Notes: generated by a model not told the origin, from the letters alone. Positions 10,964-14,047 are shown, counted from the first letter of the stretch. The stretch: 64,000 bases of DNA from Candidatus Magasanikbacteria bacterium RIFCSPHIGHO2_01_FULL_33_34 (GCA_001782825.1 MFPS01000006.1:3351-67350), one strand, 5' to 3'. Numbers and translations: made by a program.

Positions 10964-11050
10964 GGAGAGATGGCCGAGTGGTTTAAGGCAGCAGTTTACT
11001 AAACTGCCGGGCTCGCAAGGGCCTCTAGAGTTCGAATCTCTATCTCTCCG
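10964..11050 (+). tRNA. class-II tRNA (long variable arm, G73; Ser-type) with anticodon loop TTACTAA, so the apparent anticodon is ACU; no encoded CCA
   Basis: Acceptor GGAGAGA/TCTCTCC (7 bp), a 3-bp D stem GCC/GGC, anticodon stem GCAGT/ACTGC, long variable arm GGGCTCGCAAGGGCC, and T arm TAGAG-TTCGAAT-CTCTA. Confidence 0.75.
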
Positions 11051-11095
11051 CTCTCACCCGCCGAAGCTTTAGCGAAGGCAGGCAACCAACAATGT

Positions 11096-11437
11096 ATGTT
11101 AATCAAAAAATCAGAAGCAAGAAAAAAACAAGCCTCCCCAGATTGTGCTGTTTGGGAGTATGAATATCCCAGCAAAAATTTTAGTTTTGCAACTTCGTTT
11201 ATTAACGGTCGCTATCCACAAGAACAAAAAGCAAGCAATACAAAATGCGAAGAAGTATATTATGTTATTTCCGGATCTGGCAAAGTCCATTCGGACAAAG
11301 GCGATTTTGTTATAAACCCTGGTGATTTATACTTTTTTGAAAAGGGAGAGATTTATTGGGTTGAAGGCAAACAATTATTGCTCTCTATAGTCAACGCTCC
11401 AGCTTGGACTCCGGAGCAGCACAAAATAATTGACTAA
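11096..11437 (+). CDS. cupin-domain protein
   Basis: 113 aa. The small beta-barrel pattern (VYYVISGSGKVHSDKGDFVINPGDLYFFEKGEIYWVEG) is typical of cupin_2. Confidence 0.55.
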   Translation: MLIKKSEARKKQASPDCAVWEYEYPSKNFSFATSFINGRYPQEQKASNTKCEEVYYVISGSGKVHSDKGDFVINPGDLYFFEKGEIYWVEGKQLLLSIVNAPAWTPEQHKIID

Positions 11438-11491
11438 ATCCTTATTTTAAGCGAAAATATTCTAGTCTTTGGCATTTAAAAGCCAACACCT

Positions 11492-11579
11492 GGAGAGGTG
11501 TCAGAGTGGCCTATCGTACAGCTTTGCTAAAGCTGTGTACCGCAAGGTACCGAGGGTTCGAATCCCTCCCTCTCCGCCA
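11492..11579 (+). tRNA. tRNA-Ser (anticodon GCU), class II, CCA encoded
   Basis: Acceptor GGAGAGG/CCTCTCC, anticodon stem-loop CAGCT-TTGCTAA-AGCTG, long variable arm GTACC..GGTAC, T arm GAGGG-TTCGAAT-CCCTC, discriminator G, then CCA. D-arm pairing is irregular. Confidence 0.7.
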
Positions 11580-11697
11580 AATTGTACTTTTTGCGAAATT
11601 GAAAAGATTCCAAAAAAACAAAACCTCCCACAACACATAGTCAAGCTATGTATTAATGAGAGGCGGAAACCACAAAGTTAAAGCATATTCAAGTCCC

Positions 11698-12105
11698 TCA
11701 CTCCTCTTTGCAAGGGCGCAAAGCTATAGCGTAATCATGTAATAACTCATCTTCCATTCTACGAAAAAAATGTTCTAGCCCACCTTCCTTATGATACGTC
11801 AGGCACGCCACAGTAGCCGGACCACCACCAGGTAGATGACAATCAGTAAATAGAAAAACCCCATCAGGAAATTTACTTAATACTTGTTGATGATAACTCG
11901 TTACATGACGCAAATGATCCTCTCCCACATTTGCACGCATTCTTTCAATTCTACCAACTATATCACCAAATTGAGCTCCTGTATCTTTCAAAATGATCGC
12001 TTCATACACACGCACATCACCAGTCTCATTACACCCAATAGATAATTTAAATATCTCTGTGTCTACCATGTTTTTCCCCTTGCTTTCTTTTTGTTGTGAT
12101 TTCAT
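11698..12105 (-). CDS. hypothetical protein (135 aa); family not recognised
   Basis: ORF with a plausible K-rich N-terminus. It carries CHLPGGGPATVAC and HLRHVTSYH motifs, with no confident family match. Confidence 0.45.
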   Translation of the reverse strand: MKSQQKESKGKNMVDTEIFKLSIGCNETGDVRVYEAIILKDTGAQFGDIVGRIERMRANVGEDHLRHVTSYHQQVLSKFPDGVFLFTDCHLPGGGPATVACLTYHKEGGLEHFFRRMEDELLHDYAIALRPCKEE

Positions 12106-12222
12106 CTACCAAAAGTAGATAAAATATAATATTATATTTTATACAATTTGTCAAGTTATAATATTTAATTGATTTAAGTATGCAAAAATGATATATTTAG
12201 TATATATATTTAATCATTAAAT

Positions 12223-13017
12223 ATGAATTTACCTTCTATCTCTCAACTCATCAATCTTAACAACAAAACCGCTATTGTAACTGGTGGCGCAATGGGTATA
12301 GGTTTTGGCATTGCCTATCGTCTAGCCGAAGCTGGAGCTAATGTAGTGATTGCCGATATCAATAATGAAGTAGGAAAAAACGCTGCAAAAAAATTAAATG
12401 ACAATGGCTGGAAAGCAGTCTTTGTAAAAACTGATGCTGCAAATGAAAAAAATGTAAAACAAACAGTTGAATTTACTATAAAAACTTATGGCGATATCAA
12501 TATATTGGTAAATAATGCCGGTATTTATCCAATCACACCTATCAAACAAATGCTACTAAGTGATTTTGAAAAAATCATGGCAGCCAACCTAAAAAGTGTT
12601 TTTATGTTTACCAAAGCAGTTACTGAAATAATGATTAAACAAGGCAATGGTGGCAAAATAATTAATATTACATCAATTGATGCCTTACATCCTTCATCTG
12701 TAGGACTAGCTGCATATGATGCTTCCAAACACGGGCTATGGGGTTTCACCAAAAATACAGCTCTAGAATTTGCATCAAACAATATACAAATCAATGCCAT
12801 AGCACCTGGCGGTATTAGTACACCAGGTACAGGGGCTGGCAAACCAACAACTCCAGAAATGAAAGTCATCCTTAAAAAATTCTTGAACAAAATCCCAATG
12901 AAACGTATGGGCGAACCAGATGACATTGGAAAAGTTGCCCTATTTCTTGCTTCTGACCTTTCAAGTTATATGACAGGTTCACAGATTGTAGTTGATGGTG
13001 GTGTTCTACTTTCTTAA
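12223..13017 (+). CDS. SDR family NAD(P)-dependent oxidoreductase (FabG/glucose-1-dehydrogenase-like)
   Basis: TGGAMGIGFGIA Rossmann motif, NNAG, and catalytic YDASKHG (YxxxK). Confidence 0.85.
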   Translation: MNLPSISQLINLNNKTAIVTGGAMGIGFGIAYRLAEAGANVVIADINNEVGKNAAKKLNDNGWKAVFVKTDAANEKNVKQTVEFTIKTYGDINILVNNAGIYPITPIKQMLLSDFEKIMAANLKSVFMFTKAVTEIMIKQGNGGKIINITSIDALHPSSVGLAAYDASKHGLWGFTKNTALEFASNNIQINAIAPGGISTPGTGAGKPTTPEMKVILKKFLNKIPMKRMGEPDDIGKVALFLASDLSSYMTGSQIVVDGGVLLS

Positions 13018-13097
13018 ATATAAATAATTAATCATAATTTAATATCTAATATAAAGAAGCCCTAGAACGGGGCTTCTTGTGAAACAACAAATTTTAC

Positions 13098-13838
13098 TTA
13101 CCATATTACTCCAATACCAAATGACAAACGAATTTCATTTTTACTATAGAATAAATCTGTTTCAAAATGTACTGGTTCAATATTAATATCAAGTGTACTA
13201 ATGCTACCTGGATATGTCTCATTACTAACATCATTAGGCAAATAAACAGTTGCCAATTCCGTCCCCAACACATAAAGATCATGAACATTATGAGTATAAA
13301 TAATTCTCCATTCATAAGCCATACCCGTTCTAAGTTCAATGTTTGTATTGAGTACCAATCTCGAACCAAAGTTCAAGTCTACATCATAACGAATTAACGG
13401 CGCTGACAGACTTGGTATGAAAATAAAAAACTTTTCCTTCTTGATTGAGATAACCTCAGCCAATCCCATTGTAAGTTCATTAACAATATTTTCACTAGAA
13501 TAAATCGTTCTGGTACCTGACAGCAAAGCTGACAAACCAAAACGAAAAAACTTATTTGGATTGGTAATAGTAAGCCTCAAACCTGTATAACGCTTACCTT
13601 TTCTTTCGCCATTGAGTATATAGCTACGTGATCTGGCAACAGTTATGTCATGTCCGCTACCCATAGTATATTTTTGCAAATGCTTTTTTTCTTCTTTTTT
13701 ATTTTTTACATCAGGAGTATTTTTATCCTGAATAGAAACCTCGCCACCACCTGGCAAATAATCCAAAAAAGTTGTCATCTTGCCTTGAGTAGAAATACAG
13801 CCAATAAAAAGAACATAAAAAACACATAAAAATTTCAC
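13098..13838 (-). CDS. secreted or lipoprotein-like beta-rich protein with a C-terminal aromatic residue (beta-barrel-like)
   Basis: The N-terminus MKFLCVFYVLFIGCIS is a signal or lipobox-like. The sequence has alternating hydrophobic beta-strand patterning and ends ...RLSFGIGVIW. Confidence 0.45.
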   Translation of the reverse strand: MKFLCVFYVLFIGCISTQGKMTTFLDYLPGGGEVSIQDKNTPDVKNKKEEKKHLQKYTMGSGHDITVARSRSYILNGERKGKRYTGLRLTITNPNKFFRFGLSALLSGTRTIYSSENIVNELTMGLAEVISIKKEKFFIFIPSLSAPLIRYDVDLNFGSRLVLNTNIELRTGMAYEWRIIYTHNVHDLYVLGTELATVYLPNDVSNETYPGSISTLDINIEPVHFETDLFYSKNEIRLSFGIGVIW

Positions 13839-13957
13839 GTTTTCCTCCTATAAAAGTAAATTGTTGTCCTATTAATTACTATAGCATTAAAAAATATCAC
13901 TAGCAAATTTATATATTGACAATCAATAAAATATAGGATATTATGTTAAAGATCAAT

Positions 13958-14047
13958 GGAAGGGTGGCAGAGCGGTCGAATGCGACGGTCTTGAAAACCG
14001 TTGAGCCTGAAAGGGTTCCGTGGGTTCGAATCCCACCCCTTCCGCCA
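13958..14047 (+). tRNA. tRNA-Ser (anticodon UGA), class II, CCA encoded
   Basis: Acceptor GGAAGGG/CCCTTCC, D stem GCA/TGC, anticodon stem-loop ACGGT-CTTGAAA-ACCGT, long variable arm, T arm GTGGG-TTCGAAT-CCCAC, G73, then CCA. Confidence 0.85.

Follow-up and report, generated by a model that had tools for sequence, protein, structure and literature searches.

A class II serine tRNA with the anticodon ACU in Candidatus Magasanikbacteria, with counterparts in the candidate phyla radiation and in phages

In bacteria, the one standard tRNA that encodes adenosine at the first anticodon position (A34) is tRNA-Arg(ACG). What, then, is a serine tRNA gene with the anticodon ACU: an error, a decaying copy, a substrate for inosine formation or a working decoder of AGU? 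The question is raised by a 64,000-nucleotide stretch of Candidatus Magasanikbacteria bacterium RIFCSPHIGHO2_01_FULL_33_34 (GCA_001782825.1, MFPS01000006.1:3351-67350), the whole of which is called the window below, with positions counted from its first letter. A first-pass annotation of this DNA had pointed to three serine-type class II tRNAs within 3 kb, and to an ACU anticodon in one of them, in a loop (UUACUAA) that differs from that of the neighbouring GCU gene (UUGCUAA) by G34A. The three tRNAs were confirmed by ARAGORN and the Rfam tRNA covariance model (RF00005), and the anticodon and the single loop difference by direct reading of the sequence. We conclude, with a probability of about 0.7, that the ACU gene is a genuine, expressed elongator tRNA-Ser that reads AGU through an unmodified A34.

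The ACU gene and its relatives in cells and phages

According to ARAGORN, the window has three tRNAs and no others, which lie on the + strand within 3.1 kb:

10964-11050, + strand: tRNA-Ser(ACU), class II, ending at G73 (the ARAGORN call spans 10964-11051; Rfam 54.5 bits)
10996-11002, + strand: anticodon loop UUACUAA of the ACU gene
10998-11000, + strand: anticodon of the ACU gene, by direct reading (A34 at 10998, C35 at 10999, U36 at 11000)
11492-11579, + strand: tRNA-Ser(GCU), CCA encoded, G73, anticodon at 11526-11528 (ARAGORN; Rfam 44.0 bits)
13958-14047, + strand: tRNA-Ser(UGA), CCA encoded, G73, anticodon at 13992-13994 (ARAGORN; Rfam 60.7 bits)

All three score above the Rfam gathering threshold of 29 bits, and each alignment shows the standard anticodon loop of 7 nt. 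The G73 and the long variable arm, noted beforehand as marks of serine identity, were both verified. The GCU and UGA genes are ordinary, as had been stated: tRNA-Ser(UGA) is a usual UCN decoder, and tRNA-Ser(GCU) is the conserved partner isoacceptor for the AGY codons.

The ACU gene itself (E 5.9e-9 with the Rfam model) has the acceptor stem GGAGAGA/UCUCUCC, a D-stem of 3 bp, the anticodon stem GCAGU/ACUGC and the T-arm UAGAG-UUCGAAU-CUCUA. Its long variable arm, GGGCUC-GCAA-GGGCCU, forms its own stem-loop closed by a GCAA tetraloop. G73, at 11050, is followed by CTC; it is correct that this gene, alone among the three, does not encode CCA. The predicted cloverleaf has a minimum free energy of -35.2 kcal/mol (z = -3.6 against shuffles). 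Among the sequence features of class II serine tRNAs that were looked at, only the anticodon departs from expectation, lying outside the normal serine set (NGA or GCU); ACU is a highly unusual anticodon for such a tRNA.

Relatives were sought in a set with one genome per species (GTDB), using the pattern GCAGCAGTTTNCTAAACTGCC, which describes the anticodon arm with position 34 left free. At least 119 loci were obtained; among the matches listed, position 34 was A in 70, G in 43, C in 5 and T in 1. All 70 A34 matches were called tRNA-Ser(act), in at least 70 species-level genomes. Their records are labelled Magasanik-, Roizman-, Woese-, Gottesman-, Pace-, Kaiser-, Nomura- and Saccharibacteria, Paceibacteria and 'Patescibacteria group', that is, members of the candidate phyla radiation (CPR), together with three Firestonebacteria. 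The G34 matches were ordinary tRNA-Ser(GCU) genes of Nitrospira, Phycisphaerae, Cytophagales and others, none of these loci having an ACU neighbour. In 39 of the 70 ACU genomes a GCU partner is present in the same locus (within 8 kb), often at a distance of only 18-160 nt; 34 of these 39 pairs share a strand. CCA is not encoded in 48 of 72 ACU genes and in 28 of 39 partner GCU genes.

About 25 ACU-bearing metagenome-assembled genomes (MAGs) carry the labels Gammaproteobacteria, Udaeobacter or Patiriisocius. At least eight of them share syntenic blocks of the window with loci labelled Magasanikbacteria (ComF-like, VirB4/TraG at 75-78% identity, TraC-like and PrgI; or Hsp20 and VanW; or the cupin at 77%), and this shared synteny and protein identity make the non-CPR labels unreliable. 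Many such records read 'MAG TPA_asm: uncultured Gammaproteobacteria bacterium', with one Udaeobacter, one Patiriisocius and one Pseudomonadales, and have CPR-type tRNAs (L029-L136; L numbers denote loci of our collection).

The Firestonebacteria, which do not belong to the CPR, have an ACU tRNA of 85 nt with the identical anticodon arm on a different body (L045:667-751, L054:5636-5720, L089:4648-4732; L078 and L066 are listed alongside). This body has a 4-bp D-stem, a short variable arm of 12 nt, G73 and an encoded CCA, and adjoins tRNA-Ser(cga). Horizontal transfer or an independent origin could account for it.

The evolution of the ACU genes was followed in an alignment of 59 of them (51 distinct sequences), each taken from a different species-level genome. 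Standard pairs occupy 99.5% of the pair cells, and changes on both sides are seen at 14 of 25 pairs, in 246 cells, where column shuffles give 76 +/- 7. Covariation scores 0.52; the shuffles reach 0.15, and sliding the partners by 1-3 columns gives 0.07-0.10. Each of the 5 pairs of the variable arm covaries. The pairs G1-C72, G2-C71, A3-U70 and C11-G24, as well as G73 and the long variable arm, are invariant, and the T-loop, GTTCGAATC, is canonical and nearly so. G73 and these four pairs make up the serine identity set of E. coli seryl-tRNA synthetase (SerRS), and the ACU gene of the window carries all of these elements. The tRNA sequence of the window recurs unchanged in L105 and L107, the best-conserved neighbouring protein of L105 (VirB4/TraG) being only 75% identical. 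Judged by these substitution patterns, the ACU gene appears to evolve as a functional tRNA.

Since the first scan had fixed the stem, a stem-free pattern (TTTACTAAA, a gap, then GTTCGAATC) was run on metagenome contigs. In the sample examined, 104 of 120 matches were tRNA-Ser(act), with 101 distinct sequences. These genes show at least 24 different anticodon arms, nearly all fully paired, and the stem of the window is a minority type among them (12 genes, against 32 for GCGG/CCGC). A further gene, L131:2661-2745, which was found by its position and not by a pattern, also has a compensated stem change and keeps ACU. Thus, it is the anticodon that is conserved, not the anticodon arm.

The same anticodon is found in phages. 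On IMG/VR contigs, the stem-free pattern gave tRNA-Ser(act) in 116 of 120 matches (89 distinct sequences) and a pattern with the C32 loop (TCTACTAAA...) in 109 of 120 (75 distinct), or 225 of the 240 viral-contig matches sampled. Most ACU genes of the first viral set lie in tRNA arrays, with up to 23 tRNAs per locus, and Ser(gct) was also present in one locus only; in the sampled arrays, ACU is thus as a rule the single serine tRNA for AGY. For the remaining split-box NNY tRNAs of these arrays, the ratio of G34 to A34 is 151:0 in the first viral set and 134:3 in the second, 285 against 3 in total. Among isolated phages, ACU was confirmed in Escherichia jumbo phage 121Q, Xanthomonas jumbo phage XaC1 and Rhizobium phage RHph_TM2_3B. 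GenBank notes 'tRNA-Ser(act)' in 121Q (KM507819) and RHph_TM2_3B (MN988523), and the XaC1 gene is unlabelled; the loop is CUACUAA (C32) in XaC1 and RHph_TM2_3B, as against UUACUAA in the window. When the abundant ACU types of uncultured phages were compared with isolated phages by BLAST, mostly GCU or UGA serine tRNAs were returned and ACU was confirmed in these three only; S-RSM4, S-SKS1, Bastille, Fifi067, A3Wally, SparkleGoddess, PMS3 and a Vibrio phage had GCU or UGA only.

Further unusual tRNAs were observed in these arrays. Other A34 tRNAs, from the viral loci and L173, are Gly(acc) (two), Thr(agt) (three), Leu(aag) (two), Tyr(ata), Cys(aca), Asp(atc) and Ser(aga). Amber-suppressor-like tRNAs with the anticodon CUA (four), one UCA and some calls of 4-base anticodons were also recorded. 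tRNA-Ile(UAU) is frequent in CPR loci and phage arrays alike (L072, L111, L118 and about 43 metagenome or viral loci), implying that AUA is read without the lysidine (TilS) system, as it is in Mycoplasma mobile.

Proposed decoding of AGU and the alternatives

The codon box concerned is split in this organism: AGU and AGC specify Ser and AGA specifies Arg, so that it is not a box in which the U-, C- and A-ending codons are synonymous, as for I34-type tRNAs. AGA is the commonest Arg codon of the window (348, against 91 AGG), and when GroEL and RF2 are compared with non-CPR homologues, 9 of 11 AGA sites align with Arg or Lys. A change of the code at AGA or AGU was also considered and rejected, AGT being aligned most often with Ser and no sign of recoding being seen in this small sample.

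Direct analysis established that the gene is intact, conserved and covarying, that it has the serine identity elements, where it occurs, that AGA keeps its standard meaning and which Arg tRNAs accompany ACU. We infer that the ACU tRNA is expressed, charged by SerRS and specific for AGU, with A34 left unmodified. The enzyme would recognize the long variable arm, G73 and the identity pairs of the acceptor and D-stems, leaving the anticodon untouched. A34 would then form a Watson-Crick pair with the third-position U of AGU and read essentially that codon alone, the GCU tRNA being left with AGC and, by wobble, AGU. A34 would most probably remain adenosine, without conversion to inosine. SerRS does not read the anticodon, so a G34A change would cost nothing in charging. 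To our knowledge, no amino acid with a split-box NNY pair other than serine has a synthetase that ignores the anticodon; this could explain why A34 is seen for serine alone, G34 being kept by Asn, Asp, Tyr, His, Cys, Phe and Ile in the same genomes.

How do other explanations compare? Nothing but the prior rarity of A34 speaks for a sequencing or assembly error. The same locus is found in MFPW01000009 of GCA_001782875.1 (a MAG from the Rifle aquifer), in a second NCBI MAG, in a JGI metagenome and in several ENA assemblies, and the ACU gene, A34 included, is identical in eight independent assemblies, so that A34 is not the consensus error of a single one. The eight represent near-identical strains (99.9-100% over 8.4 kb) and are uninformative on selection; together with the hundreds of related genes elsewhere, their agreement excludes the error, to which we leave a practically negligible probability. 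The first-pass annotation had also proposed a recent duplicate of tRNA-Ser(GCU), changed by G34A and drifting, or a pseudo-tRNA. The loops that differ at position 34 alone, the distance of only 440 nt between the two genes and the missing CCA would fit such an origin. However, the ACU gene is just 74% identical to the GCU gene of the window (61-78%, median 73%, across 40 loci), and for each of 40 ACU genes the nearest non-identical relative is an ACU gene from a different species rather than any GCU gene; masking the anticodon arm leaves 39 of 40. The ACU genes therefore look like an old isoacceptor lineage that has evolved separately. The ACU gene also scores above the GCU gene in the covariance model, its family shows the strong covariation and almost complete pairing described above and is conserved in many CPR lineages and phages, and the absence of CCA is the majority state in that family. 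Low score, broken helices and conservation confined to close relatives, as expected of a decaying copy, were not found, and both proposals are refuted. A mainly non-decoding role, as a serine donor for the cell wall, an integration target, or a phage decoy or escape from anticodon nucleases that attack tRNA-Ser(GCU), is improbable too, if less so. Such roles would fit the VanW and peptidoglycan-binding genes in the vicinity, the partial copies of the 3' half and the adjoining serine recombinase at some loci (L067, L131, L052), and the known evasion of anticodon nucleases by phage tRNAs. Yet both T-loop and T-stem are canonical, unlike those of the cell-wall tRNAs that evade EF-Tu; an integration target leaves the conserved A34 unexplained; and CPR cells keep both ACU and GCU.

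Two further alternatives accept decoding and concern the state of A34. Deamination to inosine by TadA or a relative would give an ICU tRNA that reads AGU, AGC and, weakly, AGA. For this, the ACU loop shares U33-A34-C35 and A37-A38 with the loop of tRNA-Arg(ACG) on which TadA acts; the E. coli version of that loop, which we take to be CUACGAA, differs from the phage C32 loop CUACUAA at position 36 alone. Phage arrays with ACU often also hold Arg(ACG), indicating that these phages work in TadA-positive hosts. In addition, Phe-tRNA(AAA), also of a two-codon box, is converted to I34 in E. coli (bioRxiv 10.64898/2026.05.15.725136). An ICU tRNA, however, would misread AGA, abundant here with its standard meaning, and would make GCU redundant, yet at least 39 of 70 small genomes keep GCU beside ACU. 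The presence of Arg(ACG) goes with that of tadA, and bacteria without tadA normally have Arg(GCG) in its place (PMC8007984, PMC3711424). In the cellular-type loci, where ACU occurs with GCU, all 8 cases had Arg(GCG) as the Arg tRNA and none had Arg(ACG), which is the signature of bacteria without TadA (PMC8007984); the phage arrays had mostly Arg(ACG). This suggests that the CPR lineages with Arg(GCG) lack TadA and inosine altogether. Finally, an ACU-anticodon tRNA was not deaminated by TadA in E. coli, where it preferred AGU to AGC by at least 95:5, with AGA reading undetectable and AGG reading weak (PMC11066159). The abundance of AGA as an Arg codon, the Arg(GCG) of cellular loci and the sparing of ACU by E. 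coli TadA together make inosine unlikely. Slightly less likely again is some other, possibly undescribed, modification of A34 by which decoding is tuned or restricted. In its favour, hardly any natural tRNA is known to have an unmodified A34, the anticodon loop does not vary (UUACUAA in the CPR) and many proteins of CPR genomes are uncharacterised. But the phages of E. coli, Xanthomonas and Rhizobium use the same anticodon and each would need the enzyme, and the engineered, unmodified ACU tRNA is already AGU-specific (PMC11066159). No modification-type enzyme or SerRS gene recurs as a family beside the tRNA in 70 loci, the commonest neighbours being ABC-F ATPase (14), ComF-like (12) and GIY-YIG (9) genes.

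The earlier suggestion of an I34 decoder in an AGU-biased genome is thus upheld in one part: the ACU tRNA is almost certainly an AGU decoder, inosine is disfavoured, and the AGU bias is nothing special. The window contains 378 AGT and 71 AGC codons, a real bias with AGT at 0.84 of the two, but this share is similar to that of other split-box NNT codons. The gene is also kept in CPR loci from 30% to 49% GC, including loci where AGT makes up 0.47 of AGY. Adaptation to extreme AGU bias is therefore rejected as a sufficient explanation.

Several points weigh against reading the gene as an expressed decoder with unmodified A34. The AGU bias of the window is equal to or weaker than that of other NNT/NNC pairs, and the reading puts no figure on what a very small genome would gain from a second tRNA if AGU is already covered by the wobble of GCU. 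The alignment of AGT with Ser in GroEL and RF2, although the most frequent outcome, concerns a small sample of 11 AGT codons. Promoter-like sites near the tRNA genes (listed below) are not enriched in this AT-rich region (20, against 14.3 +/- 4.4 in shuffles). No deaminase is encoded in the 64 kb, the rest of the genome lying outside the search; a tblastn search of 2.9 Mb of loci with an E. coli TadA sequence likewise gave no match and is uninformative for whole genomes. The TadA result obtained in E. coli concerns a heterologous M. jannaschii tRNA body (PMC11066159). In addition, our scans of genome collections were ascertained by pattern, and their counts are lower bounds from which no prevalence for the CPR can be derived.

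The partner tRNAs and other features of the window

The following promoter candidates of sigma-70 type precede the three genes:

10850-10878, + strand: TTGACT-17-TAATAT, weak (9/12 matches), about 85 nt upstream of the ACU tRNA
11430-11458, + strand: TTGACT-17-GAAAAT, weak (9/12), upstream of the GCU tRNA and overlapping the end of the cupin open reading frame (ORF)
13916-13944, + strand: TTGACA-17-TATTAT, the strongest of the three (11/12), just upstream of the UGA tRNA

The GCU tRNA of the window (11492-11576) has two non-Watson-Crick pairs in its D-stem, U10.U25 and A12.C23, which were flagged by cmscan. Because the D-arm GUGUCAGAGUGGYCNAUYGU is common to the GCU genes of many Parcubacteria-type CPR genomes (L019, L028, L033 and others), this oddity is a conserved one; in Microgenomates-type GCU genes the D-stem is normal. 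The CPR-type loci with Arg(GCG) (L030, L141, L155, L183, L201, L206, L228, L235) often form the cluster Ser(act)-Arg(gcg)-Ser(cga)-Arg(ccg), and L155 shares the gene order SMC-DHH-ClpP-VanW-Hsp20 with the window, at 46-82% protein identity.

Some loci bear traces of rearrangement. One Roizmanbacteria MAG contains three ACU genes or fragments in tandem, in two of which the 5' half is replaced by the unrelated sequence GAGCCCCGAAGGGGACCC... (L067:582-665; L131:2661-3097), and the same chimera is present on a second contig. In L052 (6097-7179) a serine recombinase adjoins the ACU tRNA. The tandem fragments and the recombinase look like mobile-element integration at the ACU tRNA, leaving repeats of its 3' half. 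Directly 3' of about 10 of the 72 CPR ACU genes (L028, L048, L050, L070, L077, L105 and L110 among them) stands a GC-rich element, CCTTCGC...CGCCGAAGC. A related GC-rich stretch, CCGCCGAAGC...GCGAAGGCAGG, occurs in the window at 11051-11095, where the fold of the trailer is no better than that of shuffles (z -0.67).

The window is gene-dense, with 33% GC. Around the tRNAs lie genes for Hsp20, a VanW/peptidoglycan-binding protein, ClpP, an SDR protein, a ComF-like protein and a type-IV-secretion-like cluster, and a small cupin gene sits between the ACU and GCU genes. The window also encodes TsaC/Sua5 (of the t6A37 pathway), RF2, GroEL, NusA, YidC and KsgA. RF2 (40016-41110, - strand) is a single uninterrupted ORF of 364 aa whose alignment with solved RF2 structures starts at residue 2; the +1 frameshift usual for prfB therefore seems to be absent. 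TsaC/Sua5 (39402-40010, - strand) follows it directly; t6A37 synthesis would act on both AGY serine tRNAs. The GC skew is negative in nearly all 2-kb bins (cumulative -6.9) and most ORFs are on the - strand, which places the window within one replichore, without a skew switch. The secretion-like cluster extends over 14761-35139 on the - strand and includes:

15382-17253, - strand: VirB4/TraG-like ATPase
17268-17978, - strand: TraC-like protein
17953-18381, - strand: PrgI
20536-25449, - strand: giant ORF of 1637 aa, no match in Pfam
25459-35139, - strand: giant ORF of 3226 aa

The block from the ATPase to PrgI is syntenic in several related MAGs. According to a 2025 preprint, the type IV secretion system of Patescibacteria is homologous to monoderm conjugation systems.

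Known A34 tRNAs and what the ACU gene means

Split-box ANN anticodons were counted among eight 'universally missing' tRNA genes in a 2021 review, which held that phages lack them too (PMC8007984). A preprint of May 2026 described fifteen non-Arg ANN anticodons as 'absent across bacteria' and engineered them in E. coli; in the 4047 GtRNAdb genomes that it covers, ANN genes of two-codon boxes are only sporadic, and CPR and phages are unmentioned (bioRxiv 10.64898/2026.05.15.725136). For 95 complete Patescibacteria genomes, tRNA genes were tabulated by amino acid only (PMC13011429). In the searchable literature, which leaves out most subscription journals, no description of natural Ser(ACU) as a conserved class in CPR or phages was found. 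That the genes exist is nothing new, since public annotation already contains them (in 121Q since 2014).

Among natural tRNAs, the nearest precedent is tRNA-Asp(AUC) of Streptomyces violaceusniger SPC6 (PMC9262613). Like the ACU tRNA, it is a bacterial tRNA with A34 encoded in a split box, with a G34 isoacceptor also present (as GCU is in 39 of 70 ACU loci) and a U-ending cognate codon, and it was reported to decode that codon by Watson-Crick pairing, avoiding an inefficient G:U wobble (PMC9262613). It differs in being known from one strain of a GC-rich actinomycete and in having a synthetase that normally reads the anticodon, whereas Ser(ACU) is spread over a radiation and many phages. The engineered ACU tRNAs of E. 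coli (Schmitt 2024, PMC11066159; Raval 2026, bioRxiv 10.64898/2026.05.15.725136) have the same anticodon, are AGU-specific and are neutral to beneficial for growth: overexpression of Ser-tRNA(ACU) improved it, unlike that of most other two-codon-box ANN tRNAs (bioRxiv 10.64898/2026.05.15.725136). They are artificial, however, and to both papers the anticodon is one that nature essentially lacks; neither speaks of CPR or phages.

tRNA-Arg(ACG), with its TadA-dependent I34, shares the U33-A34-C35 context but belongs to a four-codon box and needs deamination; the ACU tRNA belongs to a split box, has U36 and occurs in cellular loci with Arg(GCG). In the small AT-rich genomes of mycoplasmas, A34 stays adenosine in tRNA-Thr(AGU), and so it does in the tRNA-Arg(ACG) of Mollicutes without TadA (PMC3711424). 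These tRNAs superwobble over all four codons of a family box, whereas the ACU tRNA must discriminate against AGA and AGG (Arg). Finally, the phage tRNA-Ser(act) genes (121Q, RHph_TM2_3B, XaC1) agree with that of the window in anticodon, class II serine body, G73 and ARAGORN calls; unlike it, they stand in tRNA arrays without a GCU partner, and they are annotated, with no discussion found in the searchable literature.

Somewhat less firmly than for the single gene, we lean towards a general view: that the CPR/Patescibacteria radiation and many phages routinely use a tRNA with unmodified A34 in a split box, serine escaping the usual exclusion since its synthetase is blind to the anticodon. Many CPR lineages would then invert the common bacterial pattern, with Arg(GCG) and no inosine and with Ser(ACU) as their only A34 tRNA, if the Arg(GCG) pattern holds genome-wide. 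For annotators, calls of tRNA-Ser(ACT) in CPR MAGs and phage genomes should not be dropped as errors, and models of codon usage and translation in CPR and phages are concerned as well. Why A34 tRNAs are almost never used is an old question, still open, to which Ser(ACU) brings a natural counter-example that is not sporadic. It suggests the rule that A34 is tolerated where the synthetase ignores the anticodon and the A:U pair is specific enough, and E. coli phage 121Q offers a tractable system for asking why A34 is otherwise excluded. If true, this would be the first clade-wide natural exception to the 'no A34' rule.

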